A DNA stretch of 64,000 bases from a virus. The stretch lies in the IMG/VR virus record IMGVR_UViG_3300014720_002669; one strand, given 5' to 3'. Position numbers and translations under genes: made by a program. This document shows positions 34,271 through 63,507 of the stretch, in pieces (positions within the stretch are counted from its first letter, which is position 1; each line of letters opens with the position of its first letter). The notes beneath the pieces were generated by a model. It made no database searches. It was not told the origin of the DNA and was given only the letters and a program-made list of their open reading frames with translations.

Positions 34271-34278
34271 ATATCAAT

Positions 34279-35837: not shown

Positions 35838-36145
35838 TGAATTCGCAACACGACCGTCAACCCTTGGCCACCATGTTGTTTGTGGTGTGTATGATTTTGT
35901 TGGTATTCAGTTGTGTGGGCTGTTCAACTGTGGTGCCTGTCACACAACGGTTTCCTGACGCACCAGGCAACGTGGCCATGACAGCCTGTCCACAACTGCA
36001 AAAAGTTGCAGAAGATGCCCGGTTAAGTGACATCTCACGCACTGTGACAGTGAACTACGGCACCTACTATGAGTGTGCTGTGAAAACCGATGCTTGGATT
36101 GAATGGTATCAAAAACAACGACAAATATTTGAGTCAGTAAAATAA
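35837..36145 (+). CDS. Outer-membrane spanin lipoprotein (Rz1-like)
   Basis: Lipobox CVGC; FPDAP...CPQL...YYECA...WIEWY. Confidence 0.7.
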   Translation: MNSQHDRQPLATMLFVVCMILLVFSCVGCSTVVPVTQRFPDAPGNVAMTACPQLQKVAEDARLSDISRTVTVNYGTYYECAVKTDAWIEWYQKQRQIFESVK

Positions 36146-36158
36146 CAAAGGAGCCTGA

Positions 36159-36776
36159 ATGGAACTTACACTACAACAATTAAAACAAATGGTGCCGGGC
36201 ATACCCCATGCTGAAAACTGGCTGGAAGCCTTGGATCAGTTACTGCCAGACTACGAAATCAACACACCTCGTCGTGTCGCTGCTTTCATAGCACAGTGCG
36301 CACACGAGTCCGGTGGGTTCCGTTTCATCAAAGAAAACTTGAACTACAAAGCAGAGAGTTTGAGAAAAGTATTTCCCAAGTATTTTCCCACAGACGAACT
36401 GGCTCGAGCCTATGCCAAGAAGCCTGAAATGATTGCCAACCGAGTGTATGCGTCACGCATGGGCAATGGTGACGAACACTCAGGTGATGGCTATCGTTAT
36501 TGCGGACGTGGCTTGATACAACTCACCGGCAAAAGCAACTATGAAAACTTTGCTGCCAGCCTGGAAATCTCACCCGAAGAAGCAGCCGAATACCTGGGCA
36601 CATTTGAAGGTGCTGCACAATCAGCCTGCTGGTTCTGGGAAAGCAACAACTTGAATGTGGAAGCCGACGCTGGAGACATCAAGAAAATGACCCGGAAAAT
36701 AAATGGCGGATACATTGGATTAGCCGATAGGGAGTCTCATTATCATCATGCCCTAGAAATATTAGGAATACGATGA
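36159..36776 (+). CDS. Endolysin, glycoside hydrolase family 19
   Basis: FIAQCAHESG, GRGLIQLTG, SACWFW, INGG..G..DR. Confidence 0.93.
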   Translation: MELTLQQLKQMVPGIPHAENWLEALDQLLPDYEINTPRRVAAFIAQCAHESGGFRFIKENLNYKAESLRKVFPKYFPTDELARAYAKKPEMIANRVYASRMGNGDEHSGDGYRYCGRGLIQLTGKSNYENFAASLEISPEEAAEYLGTFEGAAQSACWFWESNNLNVEADAGDIKKMTRKINGGYIGLADRESHYHHALEILGIR

Positions 36777-37378
36777 ACTATTTGGAATGTTATAATAATC
36801 TTGTAGAATCAAGACAACAACTACACCGTTCAAAAGGTCAAGGTGTTTATTTTGAAAAACATCATATTGTCCCACGTTGGCTTGGTGGCAAGGATACAAA
36901 AGATAATTTAGTGCTGTTTACAGCAAAAGAACATTATATTGCACATCTTTTATTATGGAAACATTACAGAGATAGACCGAGTGCTTTAGCATTTCATAAG
37001 ATGACTAGAAGCAATAATAAAAACCAACAAAGAAAGTTTACTTCGTTACAATTTAGAAAAGCCAGAGAGGCATTTGTTCAAACGCAACTTGGAGAACTAA
37101 ATTGGTCTAGTAAAAATTTATCACCTTTAAAAGGTAAACCTAGTATAAACAAAGGTAAAAAATTAGGCAAACGAGATTGGATGACTGGCGATAATAATCC
37201 TAGTCGCCGACAATCAGTAAGGGAAACAATTAGTGCAGCGTTAAAAGGACGTAAACGGTCTGATGAACATAACAAAAATTTACAAGCAGCACTCACGCCT
37301 GAAATTAAAAAATTAAGGTCTCAAAAAATTTGGGAGACACGAAGACGAAATCAATTATTAAAATTACAAGGAGCATAA
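36773..37378 (+). mobile_element. HNH homing endonuclease
   Basis: EKHHIVPRWLGGKD..DNLV.....EHYIAHLLL; basic NUMOD-like tail; AT-rich. Confidence 0.88.
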
Positions 37379-40957: not shown

Positions 40958-43207
40958 ATGAATAACCCAGAAATAGAACACATTGTTGAACAAGCAGTAA
41001 AGATTGCTCGAGAGAAAAAACATGAATATGTGTTGACTGAACACCTGTTGTTGGCCATGATTCGTCATCCAGCTCTGCGTCGGACCCTGGACAAGTACGG
41101 AGTAGAGATTACCCGGATGGATCAAGAAGTTGATGCCTATCTCAACGGACTCATGCACCTGGTGAAAGATCACGAAGATCTACAACCAAGAAAAACTCAA
41201 ACCCTGGAACGACTGTTCAATCGAGCCAATGTGCAGGCCATGTTCACTGGACGTAGACAACTGTCTGTGATAGACATTTATCTTTCGATCATGGCTGAAA
41301 CCAACAGTCATGCACACTACTTCTTGTTGAAGTACGGCGTGAAGAAAACAGATTTTGCAGAATTCTATCAGAAAAATTATGCCCAGAATGATGTGCGCAT
41401 GACTGATGTACAGGCCAATGACATCTTGACTGAGTACTGCACCAATCTCACTGAGCAGGCCAAGAATGATCAACTGGAACCCTTAATTGGACGCCAAACA
41501 GAACTGCACGAAATGATCACTGTGATGGCTCGACGCTTCAAAGCCAATGTGCTCATGGTGGGTGATCCTGGTGTGGGCAAGACCTGCATTGTGGATGGAC
41601 TTGCACAGGAAATCATTGCCGGACGTGTGCCCGAGTTTATCAAGAACCACGAAGTATGGGGTTTGGAAATTGGCAGCTTGCTGGCAGGATCCAAGTACCG
41701 CGGTGAGTTTGAAGAAAAGTTCAAGGCTGTGATTGCTGCCTTGGAAACCAAAAAGAAATGTATCCTGTTCATTGACGAAGCACACACCATGAAGGGTGCA
41801 GGATCCGGCTCAAACAGCAGTCTGGACTTTGCCAACATGCTGAAACCTGCAATCACCAAAGGCAACTTGAAAGTGATTGCGTCAACCACCTGGGAAGAAT
41901 ACTACGAGTCATTTGAGAAAGATCGCGCACTCATGCGTAGATTCTATAGACTCAGCATTGACGAGCCCGATACTGATACCACAGAAAAAATTCTAATAGG
42001 ATTGAGTCTTAGACTGGAAAAATTTCACAATGTTGAAATTGACACCGAAGCTATAATGGCCTCTGTGGAACTGGCCAACCGCTACATTCATGACCGTAAG
42101 AATCCTGACAAAGCCATTGACTTGCTGGATGCAAGTTGTGCCCGTGAGCGTGTGAAAGATGAAGGCACTGTTGTGATCACAAAAGAAATGATTCAGGCAC
42201 AAGTGAGTCGTGTGGCAGGTGTGCCTTTGGATCGCTTGCAGAACGAACGATCGGCAAAGATTGTAGATTTGGAAAGCAACATCAAGCAGAAGTTGTATGG
42301 ACAAGATTCGGCAGTGGAGGCTGTGTTGGAACGTGTATACATCAATTTTGCCGGCATTGGCAACGCAAAACGTCCTATCTCAAGTTTCTTGTTTTTGGGC
42401 CCAACTGGTACAGGCAAAACTGAACTGGCCAAACTCTTAAGCGAGCACTTGGAAATGAAACTGTTGCGATACGACATGAGTGAGTATCAGGAAAAGCACA
42501 CAGTCAGTAGTTTGATCGGTGCACCTCCGGGCTACGTGGGCTTTGAAGATGGCAATGTGGGCGGTGGCAAACTGATTTCAGACATCAGCAAAAATCCCTA
42601 TGCCATCATCTTGTTTGATGAAATTGAAAAAGCACATTCAGATGTGACCAACATCCTGTTGCAGATGTTAGACGAAGGACACATTACGTCAGCCAACGGC
42701 AAACGAGTGGATGTGAAAAACTGCATCATTATCATGACCAGTAACTTGGGCGCACAGGCCAATGACGCCAACAACATTGGGTTTGGTAGCTTGGAGAAGT
42801 CAGGCGAAGAAGATCGTGCAATGAAAGACTTCTTCCGCCCAGAACTGCGCAATCGTATTGATCGAATCTGCAAGTTCACCAAATTGGACACACTTGCCAT
42901 CAAGAAAATTGTGTTGAAGTTTGTGGACGAACTCAAAGCCAGTATGACACACAAGAACATTAAATTGTTGTTGAGTGAGCCGGTGATTGACCACTTGGCT
43001 GACAAGGGTTATGACAGCAAAATGGGCGCACGTCCCTTGAGTCGCAAGATTGATGAGCTGATCCGTGTGCCACTCAGCAAGCGGATGCTGTTTGATCGCT
43101 TGGAGAATTGCACAATCACCGCTGTGATGCGGGATGATGCTGTGGAATTTGAAATTGAACAAGACGCTGTGCCTACAATAAATGCCGAAGGAATCATCAT
43201 TGTATAA
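40958..43207 (+). CDS. clpA: ATP-dependent Clp protease ATP-binding subunit ClpA
   Basis: Clp-N domain, GDPGVGKT, GPTGTGKT, LIGAPPGYVG, IGF loop. Confidence 0.93.
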   Translation: MNNPEIEHIVEQAVKIAREKKHEYVLTEHLLLAMIRHPALRRTLDKYGVEITRMDQEVDAYLNGLMHLVKDHEDLQPRKTQTLERLFNRANVQAMFTGRRQLSVIDIYLSIMAETNSHAHYFLLKYGVKKTDFAEFYQKNYAQNDVRMTDVQANDILTEYCTNLTEQAKNDQLEPLIGRQTELHEMITVMARRFKANVLMVGDPGVGKTCIVDGLAQEIIAGRVPEFIKNHEVWGLEIGSLLAGSKYRGEFEEKFKAVIAALETKKKCILFIDEAHTMKGAGSGSNSSLDFANMLKPAITKGNLKVIASTTWEEYYESFEKDRALMRRFYRLSIDEPDTDTTEKILIGLSLRLEKFHNVEIDTEAIMASVELANRYIHDRKNPDKAIDLLDASCARERVKDEGTVVITKEMIQAQVSRVAGVPLDRLQNERSAKIVDLESNIKQKLYGQDSAVEAVLERVYINFAGIGNAKRPISSFLFLGPTGTGKTELAKLLSEHLEMKLLRYDMSEYQEKHTVSSLIGAPPGYVGFEDGNVGGGKLISDISKNPYAIILFDEIEKAHSDVTNILLQMLDEGHITSANGKRVDVKNCIIIMTSNLGAQANDANNIGFGSLEKSGEEDRAMKDFFRPELRNRIDRICKFTKLDTLAIKKIVLKFVDELKASMTHKNIKLLLSEPVIDHLADKGYDSKMGARPLSRKIDELIRVPLSKRMLFDRLENCTITAVMRDDAVEFEIEQDAVPTINAEGIIIV

Positions 43208-46620: not shown

Positions 46621-49600
46621 ATGAACATTCATGAGCTGGCTACTTACAATCTTGATGATGCTGTAAAGTTTCATCAGCGACTCAATCCTGTACTTTGGGC
46701 AAGAGACGAACATCTCTTGCCTGAAGTGCGCAACAAGTTGTTAAAAATAGCAGCAGACTTCCAAGAATTCCTGGGAGTAGAGGATCTCAAAGTAAAAGAC
46801 ATCACTGTGTCTGGATCCAATGCTGCTTATTCTTACACCAAACAATCCGACATAGATCTACACCTGGTGGTCGAAATGCCCAACGATCCGGTGTATCAAG
46901 AGTTGTTTGCTGCCAAAAAATATCAATACAACACCGAACATGACATCACCATAGGTGGTGCTGACGTTGAACTGTATGTGCAACCAGATGATCAGCCACA
47001 TCACAGTCAAGGCATTTATTCAATCAAGAACTCAGACTGGGTAAAAGTACCACAACGCAAACGCAGTCAAATAGATGACACCTGTGTGTTGGCCAAGGTA
47101 GATGATCTGGCCACCAGAATCAAATCTGCCATTGCCAGCCAGGATAGATCAGTAATGGATTCGTTGTGGAAAAAAATCAAAATCATGCGCCAGAGCGGTT
47201 TGGAAAATCATGGCGAGTTTGGCTGTGAGAATGTTGCATTCAAACTGCTGCGAAACAATGGCAGCATTGGCGCATTGAAGTCAGCTATAACAGCAGCACA
47301 AGATCGTGAACTGAGTTTGCCGCCTAAAAAACGTGTGCGCTATGGATTTTCAGAAGACGTGACTTCCACCCCTGACGGAGTCAGTGCCAGCACCAACATG
47401 TTTTTGAACGAAACACCTGTGAGCAATGTTGTGCAGTCTTTTGTGCAAGATGTAGTGCAACGCCTGGGCATTGAAAACATGCCTGAAGTAGTTTTGCACG
47501 ATGATCCTGACTGGAGCAAACAAAACAACAGCTTTGGTCAATACAATCCTGACACACGAACTTTGCATGTGAGTTTGGTTGATCGCCATCTACTGGACAT
47601 ATTGCGAACAGTGGCACATGAGCTCACTCATTGCCGTCAAAACGAGCTGGATACATTGCCAGATCATGCTGGAGAAACTGGCAGTCGTTGGGAAAATCAA
47701 GCCAATGCTCAAGCAGGCATACTCATGCGTGACTTTGCAGATGCCAATCCTGAGTATTTCAACGAGTCATACACTCAAGCAAAAAGTTTGCAGTCATCCA
47801 TGAAGACCTTTCGTGCCAAAGTACGCATCAAAGATCGATACGGTAGTCCGGCTATTGAAGCACAGGTAGTGGCCAGAAACCATGACATGGCCAGACAAAT
47901 GTTGAGAGCTCAGTACGGTCCTGACAGTGTGATCAGCACAGTGACCGAGCTTAAAGAAAATGCATCGGGCTATATTCCCAAGAACCGACGAGAAGCAGCC
48001 ATGCCTCGGTATGCCATGGCTCTTTCAGTGGATATTAAACCTGGCGAAGTTGGCAGACAAGCCAACAAACTTGCTCTGAAAACTGGACGCAATGGTGAGC
48101 CTGGTTTGCTGCAACCCGATGCACAGAATCTCTTGCGTGAGTTCAGCGAATTTGTGACAGAACAAGATCAGTTGTTTGAAATCACCATGAGTCCTTCAAG
48201 CCTGAAGAAGTTGAGTGCGCAGACTGGTGCCTTGGCCGGCATGGAATTTGAAATGATTGTGCCCGGTACCGGGGATGATGACGGCGATCTAGAACCTGAC
48301 TACGACTTTGATGAACGTTGTCGCAGCATTCAGGATGCCCGTGATTTTTTCTATGACGGTGACTACAACGGTCGTCGAGATATTCAACGCATGAGTGATC
48401 GCATGCAGAATGACTACGCAGAATGGTTGTATGAAAGACTTGACACCGACTTTACCAACAACAGTGAAAATCTCATTAGTGAGTGGATCTCAAACAATGT
48501 GGACGAATCAAAGTGGAATCCTGACGATCTTGAAGGCGAGGCTCGTCAGGAAGCCCTGGCGGAATTTGTCGCCAATGTTGATGCTCGTCCCAGCAGTGAT
48601 TATTATCAACAGGCCCTGGACGAGTATCGTGAAGAAAATCAGGGCAGTTATGACGAAAGCGACTGGTTGGATGCCGAAGATCTAGACCTCATGAGTGGCG
48701 TTGAAAACGCCTACAATATAACCTGGCCACATTGGCGCAGCACAGGTGGCGGTGAAGTCAGCACTGAGGAAGTGGCCGACAGTTTCAGCAACGCAGTGGG
48801 CCGTCCTTGCCGAGCCAGCAGCAGTTATCACTCAAGCCGAGTACCACGACCCAGCAAAACCAATGTGAGTTATATTGTGGAACCTGACAGCAGCCTGGAA
48901 CCAGATGATGCCAATGACTCTGGCCTGGAGTTTGTGAGCCCACCCCTGCCCATTGAAGAACTGCTCAGTGATTTGAACAAAGTTAAAAAGTGGGCTGACA
49001 AGACAGGTTGCTACACCAATGATTCAACTGGCCTGCACATCAATGTGTCAGTACCTGGTTGGTCTGGCGGCTCAGAAGGCCTGGACTATGTGAAACTGGC
49101 AGTGTTGTTAGGTGACGAATATGTGCTGGATGCATTTGGTCGCGCAGGCAACACCTATGCCAAGTCGGCCATGGGCAAGATTCGTTCAATAATCAAACAA
49201 AATCCTGCCAAGGCAGAAGAAATGCTGGAACGCATGAAGTCTGGCATGGATCAACTGGCCAGCCGCGCCATACACTCAGGTGCCACAGAAAAATACACGT
49301 CAATCAACAACAAAAATGGCTACATTGAATTCCGCAGCCCAGGTGGCGACTGGTTGGATGCCAACTTTGATCAAATTGAAAACACCTTGCGACGTTTCAC
49401 AGTGGCTCTAAGTGCTGCTGTTGATCCCCAGGCCTACAGACAAGAGTACCTAAAGAAACTGTATAAACTTCTGGATGTCAAGAGTGAAAAAGATTCCTTG
49501 AGTTATTTTGCACGATATGCCGCAGGCGAATTGCCCCGAGCCGCGCTGAAGAGTTTTGTGCGTCAGGCCCGACTGGAACGTGATATACAACGTGGCAAAA

Positions 49601-51582
49601 CAGGCGAGGAAGAATTCAAATGGGAAGTTGGCAGACCAGGTTATGGTGCTAGTATCATTGTCCGAGCCAAAACCAAAGAACAAGCCATTGACCGAGCCGT
49701 GCAACCAGATGGATACCCCGACTGGGCCAGTGCCAGAAGTCAACTCACAGCCCGGCCCATAGGACCAGTCGACACCGCCCCAGTCAGAGCCACTGCAGGT
49801 GAACCCCAGGCCGTTGGACAACAAGGCAACTGGGGCATTTGGATGACTGGTGAGAATCGTTTCAGCCGAGCACCAGGCCAACCGGACCCTTCTGTATATC
49901 GTAGATTTGCCAGTCGTGAGGCGGCTGAACAATACATTGAACAACAACGTCAAACGTACCCCGGTATGCGTACCGACATTGAAGTGCGTGAGATTGAACC
50001 CAGTGCCGCAGCACAGGCCATGGGACAACAAGGTGCAGCCATGCTGGGCGATCGACCCAGCAACCCCGATGGCAACTATGTGATCACGCCCGAAGGAGAT
50101 CGCACCAGCGTTTACTATCGATTCCAAGCAGTGGACATTGATGATGCCAACACAGTGTTGCGAGCCTGGCGACAGCAGTATCCCAATCAAGTGTGGTTGG
50201 CTCAACGCGACGACAGCAGAACGTTGGGACAACCGCCTGTGCCAGGATCTACCCTGGACCTACAACGTCAACGACTTGCGGCCACACCTGCATATGGTTT
50301 TAGAGATTTATTTTCAACCACCCCAGATCAACAGCAAGGCGGCAGACCTCATGATCCCACAGGACGCTATGCCATTGTGGCACGCAGCGACACAGCAGTG
50401 CATGGACGCACAGGCGGTCCAGCCCCCTACTACTATTTCAGATTCAACATGCAGAATCTTGAAGACCAAGGCCACGGACGATATGTTCTACAGGCCTGGG
50501 CTGCCAGAAATTCAGTGAACACTGATGATTACATGGTGGTTGATACCACTCAATATGCAGATGATGCTGCTCAAGGTGGCACAGTGGATGTGGCCACAGA
50601 CCGACCAGCACAGCGTACAGGCGGTGAGTTTACTGGTGAGTGGCGGGTCCTAGTCAACGGCCAAGAAGTGTATAGATTCAGTGGTGCAGGCAACAGTCAA
50701 GCCGATGCTAACAGAGTTGCCGCTGATTGGTTGCGTCGCAATGGAATGGGGGTGAGTGGCGAAGGCTTTGAAGTGTATCCGGTGATGGCAGAAAGTCTGC
50801 AAGAGGCCAAAGGCAACCGTAGAAAGTTTGCTGATGGCTATTTGGTGTTTAGTGATCATTTGTATGACAGACTACGCGATCACAGCATCAGTCAAGACGC
50901 CGTTGAGCAATTGTTAAGAAAACTGGAAGTGCGCAGATCTATTGATTTAATTCGAATGCCATACATTGACTTTGTAGTCAAAACTCCAGATTTAGCATTG
51001 GCCATTGCTAAAACACGTGACCAAAATGACAACACAGCGTTTGTTGTCAGCACAGTGCGTCAAAATTTGCGCTCAGGACCTGACCAAGATGTAGTTTATT
51101 TAGAAGATATGCCACAGCCCAGTCACGGTCCAGGACAGATCAAAGATCTAAATGAACCCTTGGGGCCAGAGTCACCACCCCAAATGCCCGCGGGCACCAT
51201 CAAAGTAGATGTGTCAGACATGTATGACTGGTATAAATTGGGACAAAAGATATCAGACCTGGACAGCATCCGGCCTGGAGAATTGGGTTCAGGACCACCA
51301 TCAACTGTGTTTGCATTTGGCTCAGAAGACCTAAAGAACATGTACAGTCATGCGCTCACACGACTGGGATTGAAGACACATGATTTGGATGAGCCTGGCG
51401 AAGAGGACATTGACGAAAACTTTGCAGACGGCCGGAATCCACAAGACAAGGGAGATAGTGCTAGGCATGGTATACCAAAGAAGGCCTCATTAGCAAAGTT
51501 AGACAAAATAGGACATGGGTCAGGCCGTAAAGCACAATTAGCCAGATGGCAGGCGAATATGAGACGTGGTCGTGCTAAATAA
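46621..51582 (+). CDS. 1653-aa polyvalent protein: Pol-beta NTase, HExxH zincin, amidoligase, small repeats, RelE-like module
   Basis: GSNA...SDIDLH; AHELTH; GMEFE / EPDSS / GLEFVSPP / TGLHIN / IEFR; SDHLYDR. Confidence 0.8.
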   Translation: MNIHELATYNLDDAVKFHQRLNPVLWARDEHLLPEVRNKLLKIAADFQEFLGVEDLKVKDITVSGSNAAYSYTKQSDIDLHLVVEMPNDPVYQELFAAKKYQYNTEHDITIGGADVELYVQPDDQPHHSQGIYSIKNSDWVKVPQRKRSQIDDTCVLAKVDDLATRIKSAIASQDRSVMDSLWKKIKIMRQSGLENHGEFGCENVAFKLLRNNGSIGALKSAITAAQDRELSLPPKKRVRYGFSEDVTSTPDGVSASTNMFLNETPVSNVVQSFVQDVVQRLGIENMPEVVLHDDPDWSKQNNSFGQYNPDTRTLHVSLVDRHLLDILRTVAHELTHCRQNELDTLPDHAGETGSRWENQANAQAGILMRDFADANPEYFNESYTQAKSLQSSMKTFRAKVRIKDRYGSPAIEAQVVARNHDMARQMLRAQYGPDSVISTVTELKENASGYIPKNRREAAMPRYAMALSVDIKPGEVGRQANKLALKTGRNGEPGLLQPDAQNLLREFSEFVTEQDQLFEITMSPSSLKKLSAQTGALAGMEFEMIVPGTGDDDGDLEPDYDFDERCRSIQDARDFFYDGDYNGRRDIQRMSDRMQNDYAEWLYERLDTDFTNNSENLISEWISNNVDESKWNPDDLEGEARQEALAEFVANVDARPSSDYYQQALDEYREENQGSYDESDWLDAEDLDLMSGVENAYNITWPHWRSTGGGEVSTEEVADSFSNAVGRPCRASSSYHSSRVPRPSKTNVSYIVEPDSSLEPDDANDSGLEFVSPPLPIEELLSDLNKVKKWADKTGCYTNDSTGLHINVSVPGWSGGSEGLDYVKLAVLLGDEYVLDAFGRAGNTYAKSAMGKIRSIIKQNPAKAEEMLERMKSGMDQLASRAIHSGATEKYTSINNKNGYIEFRSPGGDWLDANFDQIENTLRRFTVALSAAVDPQAYRQEYLKKLYKLLDVKSEKDSLSYFARYAAGELPRAALKSFVRQARLERDIQRGKTGEEEFKWEVGRPGYGASIIVRAKTKEQAIDRAVQPDGYPDWASARSQLTARPIGPVDTAPVRATAGEPQAVGQQGNWGIWMTGENRFSRAPGQPDPSVYRRFASREAAEQYIEQQRQTYPGMRTDIEVREIEPSAAAQAMGQQGAAMLGDRPSNPDGNYVITPEGDRTSVYYRFQAVDIDDANTVLRAWRQQYPNQVWLAQRDDSRTLGQPPVPGSTLDLQRQRLAATPAYGFRDLFSTTPDQQQGGRPHDPTGRYAIVARSDTAVHGRTGGPAPYYYFRFNMQNLEDQGHGRYVLQAWAARNSVNTDDYMVVDTTQYADDAAQGGTVDVATDRPAQRTGGEFTGEWRVLVNGQEVYRFSGAGNSQADANRVAADWLRRNGMGVSGEGFEVYPVMAESLQEAKGNRRKFADGYLVFSDHLYDRLRDHSISQDAVEQLLRKLEVRRSIDLIRMPYIDFVVKTPDLALAIAKTRDQNDNTAFVVSTVRQNLRSGPDQDVVYLEDMPQPSHGPGQIKDLNEPLGPESPPQMPAGTIKVDVSDMYDWYKLGQKISDLDSIRPGELGSGPPSTVFAFGSEDLKNMYSHALTRLGLKTHDLDEPGEEDIDENFADGRNPQDKGDSARHGIPKKASLAKLDKIGHGSGRKAQLARWQANMRRGRAK

Positions 51583-51589
51583 TGTTATC

Positions 51590-52186
51590 ATGGCACACGT
51601 TTATATCATCACAAACAAAATAAACAATAAACAATACGTCGGAGTGACCAATAACTCACTTCAAGAAAGATGGAAAAGTCATCTGTATGACAATAAGATC
51701 ATTAGCAAGGCTATCAAAAAATATGGCAAAGAAAACTTTTCCATAGAAGCAATACATGAATGTGATACAATGGATGAAGCGTACATTCTTGAACCAAAAT
51801 TTATTATTGAACATAATACCAAATACCCAAATGGATACAATGTATCGTCGGGAGGCAAAGGATCGCAAGTTGGTAAACGCAAGCCCACTCCAGATCATGT
51901 CAAGCAAAAAATAAGTGAATCAATCAAGAAAAATCATTACTGGAACAACTTGTCTGAAGAACAAAAAGAAAAATGCAGAGAAAGTTGGCGGGCAAACAAT
52001 CAGTCTCGTATAGGGCAAAAAAGAAGTTCATATAACAATGGATTATTCAAAAAAACTGTTTGGATCAACAACGGCGAACAGAGAAAACGAGTTCCAGAAT
52101 CTGATATAAATGACTGGATATCAAATGGGTGGATACGCGGGCACATGAACGGTGTAGTCAACATGAAATTTGGACATAAGAAATGA
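51590..52186 (+). mobile_element. GIY-YIG homing endonuclease
   Basis: HVYIITNKINNKQYVGVT...RWKSH...IKKYG...GYN; AT-rich. Confidence 0.9.
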
Positions 52187-52620: not shown

Positions 52621-53199
52621 GTGAGACACCACGAAATCACTCAAGAAGCATCGCCCAACACCTGGGCAGGCAGTTTTACTCCTGACCTGGTGGCCAGCAA
52701 GACCTGGTTGACCACACAGTTGAAAAAACAACTGGCCGGTGCGTCAGCTGGCGACGTCTATGTGCTGGGCAGTTGGTGGGGCAACACAGGAGTGTTTATC
52801 CAGCAGGCCGGCATTGAGTTTGATCGACTGATCATGGTAGAACGGCGCAGATACTTGTTGGCCAGCACCAAGATGCTGTTGAACGACCTGTGGCAACAAG
52901 GACGCTTGGTATTGTGGCATCAGGATGCTGCCAACATCCAGTATCCCACCAATCGAACCATCACAGTGATCAACACCAGCAGCAATGAAATGCCCAGAAC
53001 TTGGATCACTCGAGTGCCCCGGGGCACACTCACAGTGATACAGTCAAGGGACAATGTCAAGGATGTCAAGGTCATCACTGACACAGCAGCACAGTTTTAT
53101 GCCAAGTTTCCCTTGAAAACCACAGTGTACTGGGGCGAACGCCGACTGCGAGATCCAGAAACACGCTACCGACGCTGGATGAAGATTGGCTATAAATAA
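52621..53199 (+). CDS. Methyltransferase-like protein with CTS-like leader
   Basis: VYVLGSWWG, VINTS; MRHHEITQE. Confidence 0.6.
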   Translation: MRHHEITQEASPNTWAGSFTPDLVASKTWLTTQLKKQLAGASAGDVYVLGSWWGNTGVFIQQAGIEFDRLIMVERRRYLLASTKMLLNDLWQQGRLVLWHQDAANIQYPTNRTITVINTSSNEMPRTWITRVPRGTLTVIQSRDNVKDVKVITDTAAQFYAKFPLKTTVYWGERRLRDPETRYRRWMKIGYK

Positions 53200-53205
53200 A
53201 CAACT

Positions 53206-53559
53206 ATGACGTACAAAGAAATTCTTGAAGCCTGCTGGACTGGTTATCGCCAAGCAGGCATGAAAAACAAAGGCGGGCGCCAGGTGCCCAATTGCGTGCC
53301 TGTGCGCGAAGCCGAAATAGAAGAAAATCTTCGTGACTGGTTCAAACAAAAGTGGGTGCGTTTTGGTCCTGATGGAAAAATCCGTGGCGACTGTGCTAGA
53401 GGAAGTGAAAAGGAAGGCAAGCCCAAGTGTTTGCCCCAGGCCCGGGCGCACGCACTGGGTCGAAAAGGTCGTGCCAGTGCAGCGGCTAGAAAACGGCGTG
53501 AAGATCCCAACCCCAACCGTACAGGAAAGGCCATCAACGTGGCAACTAAAAAGAAATGA
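53206..53559 (+). CDS. Two-module basic protein, putative internal head protein
   Basis: TATAAATA; MTYKEILE|ACW...NCVP; IEE|NLRDWF...PKCLP. Confidence 0.75.
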   Translation: MTYKEILEACWTGYRQAGMKNKGGRQVPNCVPVREAEIEENLRDWFKQKWVRFGPDGKIRGDCARGSEKEGKPKCLPQARAHALGRKGRASAAARKRREDPNPNRTGKAINVATKKK

Positions 53560-54707
53560 TCATAAGCGAACTATTTGAAGAGCCACAACAGTGCCCCGAA
53601 TGCGGTGGCATCAGTTTCTCAGACTTGATCCTGGCTGAAAAGAAAGACGCCTGCTACCACAAGGTCAAGGCATCAGCCAAGGTATGGCCGTCGGCCTATG
53701 CATCCGGACGCTTGGTACAGTGTCGCAAAAAAGGTGCCGCCAACTATGGCAACAAATCAGAAGGTGTATCAGAAGCACCACTACCTGGACAACGTCGAGG
53801 CCCATTAGATTTGCAACCACTGGAAGGTGGTGGTGTTGGTGGCGGTGGTGGTTTCGGTGGCCCAACTCGAAGTGGTCCTTCACAATTTTTTGGTCCCAAA
53901 CCCGGGTCACGTGAAGCATCTGTTGCTCAGCCCAATCCCAACACTATGACGGTGAAACAAAGTCCAAACCCTGACTATCGCTCCCCATCTCAACAATCTC
54001 AAACCACAGGTGATAAACCAAAAATCAAAGTCAATCCTGGTGAAACCGTACCTCAGGCCATAGAACGCACAAAAACCCAACAAGAATTTGGCAAGTTCCT
54101 ACAAGGGCAAAGTGGTCAAACATTTGGCGCCGGCGCTGGCCGTGGCTCAATAAATCCAGCGCCAACAAACACCATGAACAACACACCGGTCAGTGTTAGA
54201 AATAAGCCATCTGCTATGAATTCCATGGCCAGAGACTTGACCAAGACCCCCACGTCAACTAGACAAAACACTCAGACTGAGCCAGTCAAACAATCTGAAC
54301 CAGTCAAACAACCTGATCCGTTTGACTTGCCACTTGACGTTGGTGCAGCACGTCCAGGTTTTGACGGTAGAATGGGCTCAACACCAATGCCAAACAGAGC
54401 AGACAAACAGTCATCCATGCTTGGAAAAGCAGGCAAAACACTGGGATATGGAGCAGCCGCTTATGGTGCTGCTGACTTAGGTTCACGTGCCCTGGACTAC
54501 TATGATCAAAATTATTCTGAGGTTCCTTATGTTCCTCAGATCAAGGAAGCCAAAAAACAACCACCCGAAGTGGAATATGATGACGAATATGATGCCATGG
54601 TGGCCAGAGTTAAAAAGTTGGCCGGACTGGGTCCGCTTAAAACTGTGTACGATCCCAAACGACGTCAGTATCGCAACCAGCCCACAGTCCAACAGCCTAA
54701 AAAATGA
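53556..54707 (+). CDS. Modular putative internal head polyprotein
   Basis: MIISELFE; LAE|KKDACY...WPSAYASG; EGVSE linker; RVKKLAGL. Confidence 0.7.
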   Translation: MIISELFEEPQQCPECGGISFSDLILAEKKDACYHKVKASAKVWPSAYASGRLVQCRKKGAANYGNKSEGVSEAPLPGQRRGPLDLQPLEGGGVGGGGGFGGPTRSGPSQFFGPKPGSREASVAQPNPNTMTVKQSPNPDYRSPSQQSQTTGDKPKIKVNPGETVPQAIERTKTQQEFGKFLQGQSGQTFGAGAGRGSINPAPTNTMNNTPVSVRNKPSAMNSMARDLTKTPTSTRQNTQTEPVKQSEPVKQPDPFDLPLDVGAARPGFDGRMGSTPMPNRADKQSSMLGKAGKTLGYGAAAYGAADLGSRALDYYDQNYSEVPYVPQIKEAKKQPPEVEYDDEYDAMVARVKKLAGLGPLKTVYDPKRRQYRNQPTVQQPKK

Positions 54708-55309
54708 GAGCACAGGAGTTTGTCATAGAGCGCAAAAAAAGCCGCCGAAAAAAATCCAGCCGGCACGGTGGATATTTCTTTCCAGGATATGCCTACTATA
54801 GCAGTGGTGGCGATTCCAGTGAAGGCGGTGGAGACGGCGGCGGCGAATCACGTTCAGGCACACCGGAAGGCAAACGTATTGCAAGAAAGCCTGGGCAACC
54901 AGCAGCATCAAAAAAACATTCAGATCTTTACACAGATGAGAATCCTCGTGGCACCATCACCGGTTTGAAATTTGCCACGGTGGAAGATGCTCGAGCCAGT
55001 GTAAGTAAAATACGAAACAGTGGCCGCAGTCATGCACACAAGATACAGGCAGCTGTGGCCATGGAACAACGAGCCCGTGCAGCCGGCAAAAGTGATGCAG
55101 CAGCAGTGTATAGGCGATTCATTGACGCCAACAAAAAAACTGAAGAACAGCAATTAGACGAACTCAGCTTCCTAGGATCCCAATGCACCAAAGACTGCTC
55201 AGGTCACAGAGCCGGATACGAGTGGTCAAAACGCAAAGGACTACGTCAGGCCAACTCATGGTCACCCAGTTTCAACAAAGGCGCTGGCCTGGCAGTGGCA
55301 GGAAAATAA
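54704..55309 (+). CDS. Modular putative internal head polyprotein
   Basis: MRAQEFVIE; DLYTDENP module; LDE|LSFLGSQCTKDCSGH module. Confidence 0.7.
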   Translation: MRAQEFVIERKKSRRKKSSRHGGYFFPGYAYYSSGGDSSEGGGDGGGESRSGTPEGKRIARKPGQPAASKKHSDLYTDENPRGTITGLKFATVEDARASVSKIRNSGRSHAHKIQAAVAMEQRARAAGKSDAAAVYRRFIDANKKTEEQQLDELSFLGSQCTKDCSGHRAGYEWSKRKGLRQANSWSPSFNKGAGLAVAGK

Positions 55310-56694: not shown

Positions 56695-57497
56695 AATTAA
56701 TGGTAGCAGGTTGTAGTTTTAGTGCTGTAAGCAAGTCATTGCCTGGCACTGCTTGGAGTGAAGTGTTGGCCAAGAAACTGGGTTGGGATTTGGTCAATCT
56801 AGCACGTCAGGGCTGCTCCAATGGTGGCATACGCATACAGATAGATGAGATACGTCGCCAGCGTGCAGACTTTGCTGTGATCACTCCCACATTCTGGGAC
56901 CGAATGGAAATACCTGCCAACTCAGTGCCCTACGACTGGAATCAAAAACCCAGTTCAGGAGTGAATCCCCCACTGGAACAGCATTTGCAAAATCGTGCCC
57001 TGGGCAATGGCTACCGCAGAGAAGATGGCATACGCAATGTCAACTACGGCACAGAACCATCAAACATGATTTGCGAAACTATCTTTACTTTGGCTGAAAA
57101 CTTTGATCATCCTTACAGAATGGCTCGTATTACAAAGCAAGCACAAACAGGTGTGCGCCATTGGATTGACAGTATCTACGACAATGCTTGGAAAAAACAA
57201 TGTGACGAATGGATTATGCGTGATGGCATCACAATGATGTACTTGGACGGTATCCGATTTATTGTGTGTCCCAACCTGCTGTGGCCATTTGATCCTGCAA
57301 ATTCTTCACAGTGGCGTGAGGCATTTCCCAGCATTGTGCCTGACCATTACATCAATTTGGATCCTGCTCGATCCCCACAGGCCATCTGCGGCAACAATCC
57401 CTTTAAGGGCGAAGATCCTGGTTATCATTCAAGTCCAGCGGGACAAGAAATAATTGCTGAACACTTTTATCAAACTTGGTTGGATCACTTCAAGTGA
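56691..57497 (+). CDS. SGNH-like hydrolase/acyltransferase
   Basis: AGCSFS, NLARQGCSN, YHSSPAGQ. Confidence 0.7.
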   Translation: MKLMVAGCSFSAVSKSLPGTAWSEVLAKKLGWDLVNLARQGCSNGGIRIQIDEIRRQRADFAVITPTFWDRMEIPANSVPYDWNQKPSSGVNPPLEQHLQNRALGNGYRREDGIRNVNYGTEPSNMICETIFTLAENFDHPYRMARITKQAQTGVRHWIDSIYDNAWKKQCDEWIMRDGITMMYLDGIRFIVCPNLLWPFDPANSSQWREAFPSIVPDHYINLDPARSPQAICGNNPFKGEDPGYHSSPAGQEIIAEHFYQTWLDHFK

Positions 57498-58546
57498 TCT
57501 ACCACAAACTGTTGTAGTTCTTTTGTTTTTTCTTGTTCAAACTTGTACAGCCTATTGTGATTGTGATCTAACTTGGGTCGGAGTTTTGGCAACAGTGCAG
57601 GCAAGTCTTGCGTACACAGATACTGCACTTGTTCAAACGCCCGGCTCCAACGAACTACGTCATCCGGCTCGGCATCGTATGATTCATCAATGACATCACC
57701 AAATGTTTCAAACCCCCAATCACGATACTGCTGTAAAAAATCTTGTATGGCAAACACCACAAACAGTCTGCGAGCTTGAAAACACTTGGCAGTTTTTTCA
57801 GCAGAAAGAAACACACGATCCTTGCCCAAAGTTTCACACACCACACTGAACCAAGTGCGATTGTATATTTCCCAAGGCACTAGACCGCTGACACTATTGT
57901 CCATGTCTTTTTTAACTTCCCATGCTGAGTCCAAGTTTGGGCTCACATAAGGATACTGTAATGCAGTATTATCAAACAGCCTAGCTACACGTTCGGGTGT
58001 TGAATCAATCCAATGCCCCACAAACAAGTCTCTGTAGGTCACAATGCTCTGTTCCAGCAAGCCTGATTGTTGTAGGCCCAGCATCACAAAGTCTCTGTGC
58101 TCTCGTCGAGCGCCTAGTAAGCATTCAAATGCATAAGCACGTTCGGCAGGAAAATCTTCTCTTGGTTGATTCCACCGCAAGAAGTTGAAACTCCAAGCTG
58201 GTCTGTAAATCACTCTTGGGTGGGGTGGTTCATCCAACCACACACCGGCTGTGTGCAACAGCCAGTTTTCTATGCCTGTGGTCCCAATCCATTCCACAAG
58301 TTCTTTTTTGCTGTGCCACTCAATGTCAGTGAACAACACAAGATCAAATTTGTGCAGCGGCAATTGCATGTATTCTGTGTTGTATTCGTGTTTGTTGGAC
58401 AGACTGTAAAACACCGGCATCACTGCAATGCGATGTGGTTGTGATAATGCAGTGTCTAAGTCTACTATTTGATCGTAGCCAAAGCCCCACTCTGTGGCCT
58501 GGTAGCCCGGGGAGAATACTTTAAGTGAGGCGTGCAAGAGTTTCAC
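57485..58546 (-). CDS. Putative glycosyltransferase-like protein
   Basis: R.HRD, SVVCET, SAEKTAK, GFETF..VIDESYD, HNH. Confidence 0.55.
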   Translation of the reverse strand: MKLLHASLKVFSPGYQATEWGFGYDQIVDLDTALSQPHRIAVMPVFYSLSNKHEYNTEYMQLPLHKFDLVLFTDIEWHSKKELVEWIGTTGIENWLLHTAGVWLDEPPHPRVIYRPAWSFNFLRWNQPREDFPAERAYAFECLLGARREHRDFVMLGLQQSGLLEQSIVTYRDLFVGHWIDSTPERVARLFDNTALQYPYVSPNLDSAWEVKKDMDNSVSGLVPWEIYNRTWFSVVCETLGKDRVFLSAEKTAKCFQARRLFVVFAIQDFLQQYRDWGFETFGDVIDESYDAEPDDVVRWSRAFEQVQYLCTQDLPALLPKLRPKLDHNHNRLYKFEQEKTKELQQFVVDHLK

Positions 58547-59405
58547 GTATCTTGTCCATGTAATAATCGAACTTCACAACTTCTTTCCGTTCCCAGTCCA
58601 TTTGCAAACTGCGACTCAAGTCAGGCACAGCATCACACACAGCAGTGTGATATGAAGGATCAAAGTCACCAATCTTTTCCATGTCATCATAATGATATCG
58701 GCGTTGGAACTCTTGGGTGATGGGCCTGCGGCTCATGGTCCAGTTGCCAATGAATTCGTATTCTGAGAACCAGCGTATGAGTTCACCGTTGCCCCAGGGA
58801 GGTACAGTGGGTTCAGGCGGACATGAGTCAATCATGGCATCCAGCCATTTCTTCTGATGTTTTTCTTCCAGGAACTTTACTAAATCGTTAAAGTCTTGTT
58901 TGAGTACAGGCACGTTTTCACTAATAAAGCAGTGCGGGGTAAGTCTGTCAAAGCCCAGGCCGTTCTTGATGCTTTCGTAGTAGCCCCAACTGTGACGTTC
59001 ATTCTCCAGCACTTGAAAATTCAACACCCCGTCCTTGATAGGTTCGTAGGGTCGGATCAGCAGACAATCACAGTCGTGCATGATCATCAAGTCATAGTTG
59101 AGATAATCAAGAAACGCAAATTTGATGGCTTGTTGACGCAGCCAGTAGGTTCGGTAGTCGCCTTCAAACACCCAGTTGTTGACTTCAGGATAGATTCTGT
59201 AGATCTCTGAATCAGGAGCATAGTCTAATTTGGCGGTGTCAATGCCGTACTTTTCAAACACAGGCCACAGTTCTTCCTGCGGTACAGGACTGGCAATACA
59301 AGTGCGGTCTATGCCAATGAGATTGTTGGCAAATTCAGGTTGCAGGCTCATGATAGCATGCGGCACACGATATCGTGCTAGGTATAAAATTCTTGCTGAG
59401 GTCAT
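58521..59405 (-). CDS. Nucleotide-diphospho-sugar transferase-like protein (DUF6492-like)
   Basis: WLRQQAIKF, HDCD, FSEYE; AAGGA SD. Confidence 0.65.
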   Translation of the reverse strand: MTSARILYLARYRVPHAIMSLQPEFANNLIGIDRTCIASPVPQEELWPVFEKYGIDTAKLDYAPDSEIYRIYPEVNNWVFEGDYRTYWLRQQAIKFAFLDYLNYDLMIMHDCDCLLIRPYEPIKDGVLNFQVLENERHSWGYYESIKNGLGFDRLTPHCFISENVPVLKQDFNDLVKFLEEKHQKKWLDAMIDSCPPEPTVPPWGNGELIRWFSEYEFIGNWTMSRRPITQEFQRRYHYDDMEKIGDFDPSYHTAVCDAVPDLSRSLQMDWERKEVVKFDYYMDKIRETLARLT

Positions 59406-59412
59406 ATTTTCC

Positions 59413-60402
59413 TTAGGTGATTGAGCAACTGTTGACACATTGATACAGCCTACCATCGGCAATACTGCTTTTAGCCCAGGTTTGTTCCACACGTTCAAAC
59501 CAGTCAAGACAATGCGCCAAATCATATTTAAGTGCGTTGTTTTCCTCAACCAATTCTTTTGTTTGACTGTTGCCGGCATGATACATGGTTTCAGGGTAGA
59601 ATCCCAGATAGCAACAAGGATACACTGACCCGTCTGCGGCTATGTATATTTCTTGTTTGATCTTGTGTTGACAACGTAAATTTAACTTTGCTGTATCCTT
59701 GTGACTTTGCACAGTGCGCGGATCAAACCATGTGACATGACTTTGTATTAAATCTTTAATGTGCGGCACATGATTGCTGGAGTCTGTGCCAATCCTGTGA
59801 CTGTATTCTCCTGACCTAGTGAACACCGGTCCGGAGTCTCGGCCATCGTAGATGTTTTCAAACTCAACAAATCCCAGGTCTTGGGCCAGTTGTCGGCATT
59901 CGGCTTCTTGATGTCGGTTGTGATCAAATGGTACGAAACGCCATTTGGCCCGACCGCCCGCAGCGATCAAAGCCTGTGCATTGGCTATGACTTTGTTCCA
60001 GTCTGTATCTTGACGGTACAGGGCATGAGTATCTGCCAGACCGTCCAGCGCAAATCCCACAGTGACCCGGGGCAACGCCAAACGCCGCCACCAATCTGTG
60101 TTGCGCAAACTGCCGTTGGTGTTGATGTTTACTGTGACACCATGTTCCGCAAGATACTCAACTATTTCCACAGCGTCTCGAGCCGACGCAAAGTCTCCCA
60201 GGTTGCCATTGAAGTTGACGTGTGTTAGCTGTGATATCACAGGTGCCAAAATGTGCCGGAACTGTGCAAGACTCAGTTCCACATCAGGATAACCTGAATT
60301 GTAATCCAAGCCTCGATAGTTGCGCATACACATGGGACAACGGGCATTGCACCGGGTAGTGAGTTCCACATGCACCTGGCGTATTTGGTCTAATTTTAGC
60401 AT
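59413..60402 (-). CDS. Radical SAM protein with SPASM-like C-terminus
   Basis: [24 protein letters not shown]. Confidence 0.9.
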
Positions 60403-60439: not shown

Positions 60440-60742
60440 ATGCAAACTCAATACGTGCGAGTAGTATGTGACATAAGTGGCAGGTGTTCTCAACCTGCAC
60501 GATATCGCGTGTATGTCAATGAAGAATTGTTCAGTGAGCGCACCTGGATCTGGAAAGACATTTATCTTGAAGAGTCTTTGCAAATACAAGCACCGTTTGG
60601 CGCTTACTTGTTGCGGTTTGAAAATGTAGATCCTGACTGTGGGAATTTCAAAATGCGCAATGTGCGAGTACAAGAAGGTCCTGGCAAGATCAAAACCTTT
60701 GATGGCAAAATATACATAGAGGTGCATGATGAGATGGCGTGA
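60440..60742 (+). CDS. Hypothetical protein
   Basis: [17 protein letters not shown]; TAAATA 5 nt upstream. Confidence 0.75.
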
Positions 60743-60947
60743 AATTGTAGAATCAGCATCAGCAGGCGCTACTGCATCTGGCGGTATTGCTCCTGTAAGC
60801 CAGCCCATGGGCATAACGTCAAGATCTGGCAGTTCCTTACTGACAGGTAAATATACAACTGGTTTGGACCCTACGCCGAATACACCTAAAGAATACAAGA
60901 GGAACAAGCATGCTCGCGGACAATTTGAAAACTCTATTGGCAAGTAA
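60729..60947 (+). CDS. Small putative internal head protein
   Basis: MRWREIVE|SASAGAT. Confidence 0.65.
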   Translation: MRWREIVESASAGATASGGIAPVSQPMGITSRSGSSLLTGKYTTGLDPTPNTPKEYKRNKHARGQFENSIGK

Positions 60948-61350
60948 TTTTGTCTACTACCTCAAAGCACACCAATTTCATTGGAATGTGGAAGGCTCTG
61001 ATTTTGGCCAGCTACACAAATTTTTCCAAGAAATCTACGAAGATGCCTATGGTGCGTTGGATCTGATTGCAGAATACATACGATATCTTGACGAATACGC
61101 TCCCGGCAGCCTTGAACGCTTTGCTGAACTCAGTATCATACAAGGCCAAACCAAGATACCACGTGCTCGACTCATGATTGAGGAACTGTTGGCCAACACA
61201 CAACAAATGATCGACCTGCTGAACCAGTGCTTTGCTGCTGCTGAACAAGAAAGTCAACAGGGCATTGCTGACTTTGTGAGCCAGCGGCTGAGCCAACACG
61301 GCAAGTATCAATGGCAACTGCGCAGTTATCTGAAAGATCAGCGAGCATGA
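60910..61350 (+). CDS. dps: Dps/DNA-binding ferritin-like protein
   Basis: HQFHWNVEG..F..LH..F..IY, D.IAE, H.K..WQL. Confidence 0.92.
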   Translation: MLADNLKTLLASNFVYYLKAHQFHWNVEGSDFGQLHKFFQEIYEDAYGALDLIAEYIRYLDEYAPGSLERFAELSIIQGQTKIPRARLMIEELLANTQQMIDLLNQCFAAAEQESQQGIADFVSQRLSQHGKYQWQLRSYLKDQRA

Positions 61351-61971: not shown

Positions 61972-63507
61972 ATGCTGATAAACGACTTATTCAACAATAA
62001 CAAACAAGGTGTGGCGGAAGGCAGGTTTGATGAACCACTAACAGGATGGCATATTGTTTATCGTAATTCAGGTAATCCAGTTCATGCTACTCCCAGTTTT
62101 GAAACCAAAGAGCAAGCACAAAAGTATCTAATGACACGAATGTTTGCCAATCACCAAGATTACAAAGTAGTTCATACCGCAGGTGTAGGTGTGGCGGAAG
62201 GTGAAGTCATTCCATTCAAGAGGCCCCAGTCACAGACCGCAGTGTCTTGGCAAAAACTGCCCAAAGATGTATTGACCCTGGCAAATGATTGGTACTGGGC
62301 CGACTACGAAGGTGGTGGATCTGCTGCCATAATGGATCCCAAAGGGCTAGGCAGCGGATTTGCAAATCAAAAAAAATATTTGGGTGCTCAACTGCAACAA
62401 CGAGGATGGGCCATTGACTTTGATGACGAATTTGAAAATGTTGTATTGAAAAACAAGCAAGGTCAAACAATTTTGTTGCCCATTGAGGATGCACAGACTT
62501 TCTCGGGCTGGGCCACGGGCATCAATCTTGTCACAGAGCAAGGTATGGCAGAAGGCAAAGCCGATTACAACTTTGATATTGAGGATTTGAAACGCCTTGA
62601 GCAAATTAGAGATCTAGCAACACTAAAAGCACAAGCATTAGAATTGATCAGTAAACCCAGTGCCAAACCAATGAAACCAGAAAAAGTTGAATGGTTTAGA
62701 AATGCTCTGAATCGCATGGACAGTCCGTTAAAAGTCATAAAGTTAATGTATGATTTGTTGCTCAGTGGCGAAGGAAAAGCCGTGGTCGGATCCAGGTCAT
62801 CAATGAACCCCAACACTTATCGTCAGAGGTTTGGTGAGCAAGGCATTGTGGAAAATCAAGATTGGATGAAAGATTTAGCAGCCAAGGCCGCTGCCATGTC
62901 CAAGCCTGGCACACCATATGTGCCACCAAAGCAAGACGCTGAAAAGGCACGTCGTGATCTCACAGCACGATATCCCAACATTGATGAACTGGTCGCGGCT
63001 GCTGAAAAACGTCGTGATCCCTACTATCAATATGCCGAAGGCCCAGCCTACTATCGGGGCCGCGAAGCCGAACATGAATATCAACGACTGCGACAGATCC
63101 AACGTGTGATTCAAGGTTTGAACGAAATGAACTTTGGCGGTGTAGGCCAAACCACAGATTCAGCCACTGGCGATATAACCACCAGTTTCAATCAAGGTCC
63201 GTTGTCTGTGTCGCAGACCAAAACGCCTGGCGGTTATACAAAACAAACTGATCAACAAGTCAACCTGGGCACAGCAACGCTGGGCGCACGAACGGTTGGA
63301 CCCAACATTGGCGCAGGTCAGTTGGCTGGTACCACAACCAAGACTGCCACAAACAACATTACCGGACAGGCCAAACAACAAGTCAAAGGAGTTGGCTTTG
63401 GTGGTGCCACAGGTGCCACAGTGGGCAAAAACTACGTTGATCAATACAGCGTAAATGAAAACGTGGCACGCATGCAATATCTGGCAGGTATTCGACCAGC
63501 CCGATAA
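61972..63507 (+). CDS. Cassette-like polyprotein with four GVAE-type linkers
   Basis: KQGVAEG, GVGVAEG, EQGMAEG, EQGIVE; ends RMQYLAGI. Confidence 0.75.
   Translation: MLINDLFNNNKQGVAEGRFDEPLTGWHIVYRNSGNPVHATPSFETKEQAQKYLMTRMFANHQDYKVVHTAGVGVAEGEVIPFKRPQSQTAVSWQKLPKDVLTLANDWYWADYEGGGSAAIMDPKGLGSGFANQKKYLGAQLQQRGWAIDFDDEFENVVLKNKQGQTILLPIEDAQTFSGWATGINLVTEQGMAEGKADYNFDIEDLKRLEQIRDLATLKAQALELISKPSAKPMKPEKVEWFRNALNRMDSPLKVIKLMYDLLLSGEGKAVVGSRSSMNPNTYRQRFGEQGIVENQDWMKDLAAKAAAMSKPGTPYVPPKQDAEKARRDLTARYPNIDELVAAAEKRRDPYYQYAEGPAYYRGREAEHEYQRLRQIQRVIQGLNEMNFGGVGQTTDSATGDITTSFNQGPLSVSQTKTPGGYTKQTDQQVNLGTATLGARTVGPNIGAGQLAGTTTKTATNNITGQAKQQVKGVGFGGATGATVGKNYVDQYSVNENVARMQYLAGIRPAR
62003..62020 (+). 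repeat. Dispersed linker repeat AACAAGGTGTGGCGGAAG
   Basis: Identical to 35557-35574; the core recurs at 62187-62201; variants at 62539 and 62836. Confidence 0.85.

Follow-up and report, generated by a model that had tools for sequence, protein, structure and literature searches.

Why are the mutually unrelated modules of one phage protein joined by short linkers that recur, as peptide and as DNA, in other genes of the same genome? The question is raised by gene P0003 (61972–63507, + strand), located in a 64,000-nucleotide stretch of viral DNA (IMG/VR record IMGVR_UViG_3300014720_002669), here called the window. A preliminary description had portrayed its product as a cassette polyprotein of effector modules, separated by a QGVAE-type linker that would be both a maturation site and a recombination target, and we followed up this proposal computationally.

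Modular anatomy of P0003 and its genomic context

P0003 encodes 511 aa, organised as a chain of independent small modules: a leader, five modules (M1–M5) and a C-terminal tail. The leader (aa 1–16; 61972–62019), likened to a T4 capsid-targeting sequence (CTS), ends V-A-E. It is followed by M1 (aa 17–76; 62020–62199), which extends from linker 1 to linker 2 and was delimited by DNA homology to L029, L031, L035 and L037; by M2 (aa 77–194; 62200–62553) and M3 (aa 195–294; 62554–62853), both defined from module alignments and AF2 models; by M4 (aa 295–385; 62854–63126), which ends L-N-E and for which homology to L019 covers exactly 62836–63126; and by M5 (aa 386–496; 63127–63459), which is Gly/Thr/Gln-rich, ends V-N-E and is duplicated in L002–L006. 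The tail (aa 497–511; 63460–63504) carries an R-x-x-x-LAGI motif like that of a scaffold C-terminus. Four linkers were located in this chain, all on the + strand: linker 1, QGVAEG at 62005–62022, is an exact copy of the canonical 18-nt word; linker 2, GVAEG at 62188–62202, has the same codons as linker 1 (GGT GTG GCG GAA); linker 3, QGMAEG at 62539–62556, is degenerate, with three mismatches to the word; and linker 4, QGIVE at 62839–62853, is also degenerate. The junction peptides listed at the outset were recovered (QGVAE 62005–62019, GVAE 62188–62199, QGMAE 62539–62553 and QGIVE 62839–62853).

No significant mutual similarity was found among the five modules by BLASTP, which upholds the initial picture of the 511-aa ORF as a chain of unrelated modules, with sizes of 60, 118, 100, 91 and 111 aa rather than the 55–110 aa first given. 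P0003 had no match in Pfam or PHROG and neither a DNA nor a protein match in cultured phage records, single modules gave nothing above sub-threshold noise against Pfam, and fold searches with the M2 and M3 models returned no solved structure at E ≤ 0.001. Because the modules match neither a known family nor a known fold, we find no support for the terms 'effector' and 'injected' in the preliminary description. AF2 was run on single modules with deep module alignments, leaving out the misaligned whole-protein MAFFT alignments A1 and A3, and it predicted a small alpha/beta core for M2 and a four-helix core for M3, each with pLDDT of about 80–89, against values below 50 for the junction residues; the P0003 junctions are disordered in these predicted models. 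M3 is the most widespread of the modules, being present in 93 of 160 homology stretches.

Two further polyprotein genes lie in the window, both on the + strand. P0001 (34734–35837) has a leader, the linkers KGVTE (35331) and QGVAE (35559) and a C-terminal DUF6321, and P0002 (53556–54707) has a leader, a Zn-ribbon-like first module, the linker EGVSE (53760) and a scaffold-like C-terminal motif; the related linkers at 35331 and 53760 had been pointed out before, as had the copy of the 18-mer that spans the canonical QGVAE at 35559. P0002 stands between two + strand genes with CTS-like N-termini, at 53206–53559 (I-L-E at aa 6–8; phrog_727 modules) and at 54704–55309 (V-I-E at aa 7–9, assigned from the N-terminal pattern). 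Just upstream of this 53206–55309 block is a match to the T4 late-promoter consensus, TATAAATA (53191–53198, +), which occurs four times in the window versus 0.65 expected; its role as a promoter is uncertain, since it is only 7 nt from the ATG of 53206.

In inverted orientation, the window runs collinear to 46.7–111 kb of G001, a complete metagenomic phage genome of 364,404 bp with terminal repeats, which is the contig behind L013. G001 has its head genes in T4-type order (portal, a 72-aa protein, an acidic protein, an S77 prohead protease, scaffold and a gp23-like capsid protein), and its scaffold shares 40% identity with the one from cultured Pseudomonas phage PA5oct and roughly 28–30% with RaK2 and PBECO4-type (121Q-related) scaffolds. 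Because the syntenic G001 has this T4-type head module and related scaffold, we place the window in the T4-related, PA5oct/RaK2-like lineage of giant myoviruses, as DNA of an uncultured member. The 64-kb window itself is without the head module, and the protease is known only from relatives, being present within a T4-type head module in G001 and G003. Portal, protease and capsid genes were not detected in the linker-bearing G002, which is probably a truncated linear contig, given that its polyprotein is orthologous to that of G001. Tail-fibre, baseplate-like and lysis genes of the window share their strand with the polyprotein genes.

Several neighbouring genes deserve mention. P0001 lies between two spanin-like genes and adjoins an endolysin gene (34264–36776, +), an arrangement found also in G001. 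Between the polyprotein genes, a 1653-aa protein (46621–51582, +) combines an Amidoligase_2 domain with a weak nucleotidyltransferase match and looks like a classical polyvalent protein, and its domain borders had been read as x-x-E in the preliminary description. A ClpA/ClpB-like double AAA+ ATPase is encoded at 40958–43207 (+; phrog_4871, E about 1e-236; 76% identical in G001). A radical SAM/SPASM enzyme, with TATAAATA again found 4 nt before its start, is grouped at 57485–60402 (−) with two further minus-strand genes, one DUF6492-like, and a Dps/ferritin-like gene (60910–61350) is on the other side of this group.

The linker DNA is conserved as a word, and homology breakpoints fall at it

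The 18-mer at 62003–62020 had been reported as identical to 35557–35574, and it is; none of 100 shuffles reached the observed count, and a third copy with three mismatches was found at 62537. Equally borne out were the use of GTG-GCG-GAA in three window copies and the scarcity of GCG, which accounts for 6% of Ala codons across the window. The share of GCG in comparable sequence contexts was 4–9%, except for [VIL]-A-E in the window (3/13); in the window GCG is rare before Glu and after Val, and in G001 it is just as scarce in all three contexts, Ala preceding Glu, Ala following Val and [VIL]-A-E. Since GCG is rare in comparable contexts, its preference in linkers is not a context effect.

To quantify codon choice, 46 linkers from 14 non-identical ORFs were compared with the remainder of the same ORFs as background. 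Ala was encoded by GCG in 30 of 36 linkers (background 5%), Val by GTG in 29 of 38 (30%), the P4 Gly by GGT in 38 of 46 (45%), the P1' Gly by GGC in 20 of 25 (32%) and Gln by CAA in all 29 (74%). The identical 18-mer was present in 8 of 13 QGVAEG linkers (12 different flank contexts), with a chance of 0.0012 under random back-translation. Moreover, the word with GCG occurs in at least 120 IMG/VR stretches compared to 42 for its GCA variant, even though the GCA codon is seven-fold commoner than GCG. We found the word in at least 172 distinct contexts, and among the 172 listed the linker frame was open in 166, versus 8 and 4 for the other two frames. Conservation around the word is limited to about 20 nt, every copy in three related giant genomes is on the coding strand, and a control word (the same read backwards) had no match in these three genomes. 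The linker DNA is conserved as a word, its silent positions far beyond what codon usage would give.

Ends of protein homology accumulate at linkers, and DNA breakpoints were mapped by BLASTN of the P0003 gene against 39 related contigs. The segment comprising the upstream gene and the leader stops at 62000–62023; that of M1 extends from 61999–62031 to 62176–62205; that of M3 starts at 62532–62545 in matches reaching the upstream linker and ends at 62841–62855 in those running through to the downstream linker; that of M4 covers 62836–63126; and homology in the downstream flank picks up again at 63506. Contigs L001, L002, L003 and L019 have the window flanks in common and different module sets between them. 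The G001 gene at the P0003 position is without the leader and without any P0003 module; M3 resides in G001 between two canonical linkers inside the P0001 orthologue, where its DNA identity to the window (~80%) starts and stops inside the linkers. The G001 orthologue of P0002 keeps both end modules, with four other linker-bounded modules between them. Homology breakpoints fall at the word and module content varies among orthologues, as expected from the gain and loss of modules postulated in the preliminary description.

The epithet 'integron-like' used there holds as an analogy only: the exchanged segments are in frame, the word is unstructured, and no integrase was matched among the roughly 45 window ORFs scanned against PHROGs. 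No recombinase was consistently linked to the word, which is neither palindromic nor an inverted repeat and gives no stem-loop signal. Homing endonuclease genes are frequent in these genomes, and two of them, an HNH gene (36773–37378, +) and a GIY-YIG gene (51566–52186, +), are near P0001 and P0002 respectively, with no counterpart at the syntenic places in G001.

Junction peptide, leader and tail

At the peptide level, the P0003 junctions have the form aliphatic-x-Glu|Gly, with QGVAE|G as the canonical version, and seven of the eight [LIVM]-x-E sites in the protein are at module borders. Homologues, sampled by taking a single representative from each of 150 clusters (50% identity), contain 179 strict linkers in 82 k residues, with the consensus [E/K]-Q-G-V-A-E-G. 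We compared junction positions for the same module placed in many different contexts. All 28 junctions preceding M2 had Glu at P1, Gly at P1' and an aliphatic residue at P3, while P2, P4 and P5 were variable; among 36 junctions preceding M3, these three features were counted in 33, 35 and 34, respectively. T4-family prohead proteases cleave after Glu (PMC9026906, PMC5694885), and the near-constant junction positions (aliphatic P3, Glu P1, Gly/Ala P1') coincide with the positions that define their sites. On such indirect support, the junctions can be regarded as candidate prohead protease sites. Avoidance of [LIVM]-x-E inside modules was considered as additional support and discarded: it looks strong for M2 and M3 but is gone over 78 non-redundant inter-linker module families (82 observed versus 86.6 expected), and since the M2 and M3 sequences are homologous, their apparent depletion does not count as independent evidence. 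With the minimal site undepleted within modules, specificity would need accessibility or a longer motif. Capsid and scaffold proteins are without QGVAE at their sites.

Related junctions were also seen in more distant or structural proteins. Synechococcus phage B23 gp266 (L075:1745–2875) is modular, with a KCW-type module and DUF6321, and its gene sits between two genes annotated in the record as terminase; its DUF6321 is preceded by a junction with I-V-E, and the canonical linker is absent. A 1197-aa baseplate-hub or tail-lysozyme-like protein of the window (17531–21124, +) contains QGITE at 18692, a site conserved as QGVTE in its G001 counterpart and perhaps marking where a structural protein is processed. 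An 878-aa G001 protein (205329–207965, −; L064:5329–7965) has two identical QGMAE-A junctions, a scaffold-like C-terminal motif and a weak match to a virion structural PHROG.

A first pattern for the N-terminal leader, searched in all six frames of the window, matched only the three linker-bearing ORFs; across loci, the leader was found in 28 of 74 complete multi-linker ORFs versus 39 of 1472 others, so that by the pattern used only 38% of complete multi-linker ORFs have a leader. With a broader, T4-CTS-like N-terminal pattern, five window ORFs were identified against 0.2 expected, including the contiguous block formed by 53206, P0002 and 54704. A 180-aa protein of an unassigned family (9683–10225, +; 86% identical in G001) likewise has a CTS-like N-terminus, with L-V-E at aa 7–9. 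The leader-type N-terminus is also on a 72–74-aa protein whose gene directly follows the portal gene, in the slot of T4 gene 67, in both G001 and PA5oct; the two versions match each other at E = 3e-14, and the PA5oct copy is annotated in the record as 'structural protein, ESI-MS/MS'. For PA5oct, 93 virion-linked products have been reported (PMC7318152).

The tails of P0003 and P0002 share a basic-x-x-x-LAG[IL] motif that, within the last 45 residues, was found in the window in these two proteins only and in G001 in the P0002 orthologue, the scaffold and three other ORFs; the PA5oct scaffold ends with the same motif. The leader thus resembles, by these patterns, a T4 CTS, and the tail a scaffold C-terminus. 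In the capsid proteins of G001 and PA5oct, aliphatic-x-Glu directly precedes the conserved mature N-terminus. A 73-aa ORF of the window (60726–60947, +) has an N-terminus that ends I-V-E and continues S-A-G-A-T...G-I-A, a stretch resembling the predicted mature N-terminus of these capsid proteins; the ORF is conserved in G001 (47889–48101), its stretch opens a polyprotein in L026, and it may mimic the capsid N-arm.

Proposed mechanism, alternatives and precedents

The reading that we favour, and hold with moderate confidence, is that P0003 encodes a cargo precursor that would be loaded into the prohead and cut at each junction, with the linker DNA doubling as an in-frame crossover point. The precursor, five independent small proteins in one, would be made late and drawn by its N-terminal leader into the assembling prohead core, perhaps with help from the scaffold-like C-terminal tail. 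A T4-type (S77) prohead protease would then cut after Glu at every aliphatic-x-Glu|Gly junction, and the released modules, of 6–13 kDa, would remain in the head and exit with the DNA. Recombination between copies of the word would move, add, delete and duplicate modules with the reading frame intact, and frequent exchange would in turn keep the word uniform. Late expression, prohead targeting, cleavage, packaging, injection and an effector function of the modules are all steps that we infer. Several points count against this scheme, among them the missing head module of the window, the undetected head genes of G002, the undepleted minimal site within modules, the absence of QGVAE from capsid and scaffold proteins and the leader on only 38% of complete multi-linker ORFs; moreover, P0001 is beside spanin-like and endolysin genes, an unusual place for head cargo, and the 18–20 nt shared by word copies are short for classical homologous recombination.

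The linker could instead be a shuffling junction and nothing else, joining intact multi-domain cytoplasmic proteins through a flexible segment kept uniform by recombination, with neither cleavage nor packaging. A protease is not required to account for the DNA conservation or the breakpoints, modules show no avoidance of [LIVM]-x-E in their interior, and the position of P0001 within a lysis cassette would fit; yet junctions at which the word has decayed still keep the aliphatic P3, Glu at P1 and a small P1', the distant cyanophage retains I-V-E at its DUF6321 junction without the word, and leader and tail look like head-protein termini, so we regard such a junction as unlikely to be the whole explanation. 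It could also be asked if the conserved silent sites serve translation or the mRNA, as a ribosome pause (SD-like AGGUG plus the rare GCG) for module folding or as the site of an RNA-binding factor. The word does hold AGGTG together with one rare codon, exactly between folding units, but local RNA structure at the word gave no signal (mean MFE −15.1 versus −13.9 in control windows), no start codon follows it at Shine-Dalgarno spacing, by which an internal translation start at the linker was also rejected, and a pause would leave the breakpoints in the word unexplained; we consider this role very improbable.

A different explanation for those same breakpoints invokes a dedicated nuclease or site-specific recombinase acting on the word, the modules being mobile in-frame cassettes that excise and insert with one copy of the word each. 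That direct repeats of a single 20-nt word stand on both sides of each module, that these contexts are so numerous and nearly always in frame and that homing endonuclease genes abound in these genomes would all suit such a system, against which stand the lack of a consistently linked recombinase, the lack of a counterpart in syntenic G001 for either endonuclease gene near the polyprotein genes and a word that is neither palindromic nor structured, leaving it decidedly improbable. In a bolder form, which we would call a long shot, the 20-nt word would be a protein-level counterpart of attC, recognised by a phage nuclease or recombinase, and module-plus-word units would be excised, pass from one giant phage to another during co-infection and integrate into any polyprotein gene. 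Chance or a low-complexity artefact has practically no claim, in view of the shuffles, the density of strict linkers in homologues and the matchless backwards control word.

If the favoured reading of a cut and packaged cargo precursor is right, one short sequence would carry two codes, a maturation-protease site in the peptide and an in-frame crossover point in the DNA, and this would account for the ability of giant phages to reshuffle a large stock of small proteins delivered from the head while keeping frames intact. Hundreds of small modules, of which a small sample already gave 78 families, would then be candidate early host take-over or anti-defence factors and, because module borders are marked in the sequence, they are easy to clone and test singly. 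The T4 capsid-targeting principle would be extended to a polyprotein, with possible use in loading several proteins into heads. Were the word instead a cassette site, it would provide a programmable, rapidly re-assortable set of capsid-delivered proteins released by one protease.

In the literature, full-text matches to the linker peptide were, among those listed, only alpha-synuclein papers, and searches on polyprotein plus prohead protease and on the DUF names returned nothing relevant. We found no published in-frame array whose cut site doubles as a DNA-conserved exchange site, and it is the parts that have precedents, in T4 CTS cargo, polyvalent proteins, PeSL shuffling and the junction motifs of polymorphic toxins.

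The T4 cargo proteins IPI–III and Alt carry a capsid targeting sequence that is removed by the prohead protease gp21, and Alt also sheds a C-terminal peptide (PMC9026906, PMC3012670). Common to T4 and the present system are a short N-terminal propeptide (putative here) ending aliphatic-x-Glu (PMC9026906, PMC3012670), a T4-family protease with T4 head gene order alongside, known here from relatives, and diverse, unrelated small proteins, here candidate cargo, behind a common leader. T4 cargo, however, is encoded by separate genes of one module each, whereas up to nine linkers occur here in one frame, and the DNA of the putative cut site is fixed at silent positions. In the giant phages phiKZ, 201phi2-1 and SPN3US, cleavage after Glu takes place within short motifs in many head proteins, and propeptides contain redundant sites (PMC5694885, PMC9026906); these motifs are S/A/G-x-E in separate paralogous genes, and neither a conserved DNA word nor shuffling at the sites has been reported for them.

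Polyvalent proteins (Iyer et al. 2017, PMC5512222), known from phages and conjugative elements, are similarly multi-domain mosaics with rapid domain turnover, for which packaging and delivery along with the DNA are predicted, and with five unrelated modules P0003 is within their range of two to fifteen distinct domains per polypeptide. They are defined by recognisable enzymatic conflict domains, in contrast to modules that match no Pfam, PHROG or PDB fold, and the word 'linker' is nowhere used in that paper (PMC5512222). A parallel at the DNA level is found in T4-type phages, whose PeSL cassettes (Arbiol et al. 2010, PMC2839356) provide a short, conserved element, repeated between variable units, that mediates modular shuffling; a PeSL, however, is an intergenic sigma-70 promoter plus terminator stem-loop between whole genes, unlike a word that is coding, in frame and unstructured. 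Neither does the word behave as part of an integron, with its tyrosine integrase, folded attI/attC sites and promoterless whole-gene cassettes. In polymorphic toxins (CdiA with its VENN motif, Rhs with its core end) and in T-even tail fibre adhesins (His-box and glycine-rich motifs), a motif conserved as peptide and as DNA marks the point at which variable parts are swapped by recombination, and the Rhs junction motif is also a proteolytic site. Those systems, which involve different proteins and proteases, have one junction and a single variable tip, whereas in P0003 and its relatives such junctions form an array.
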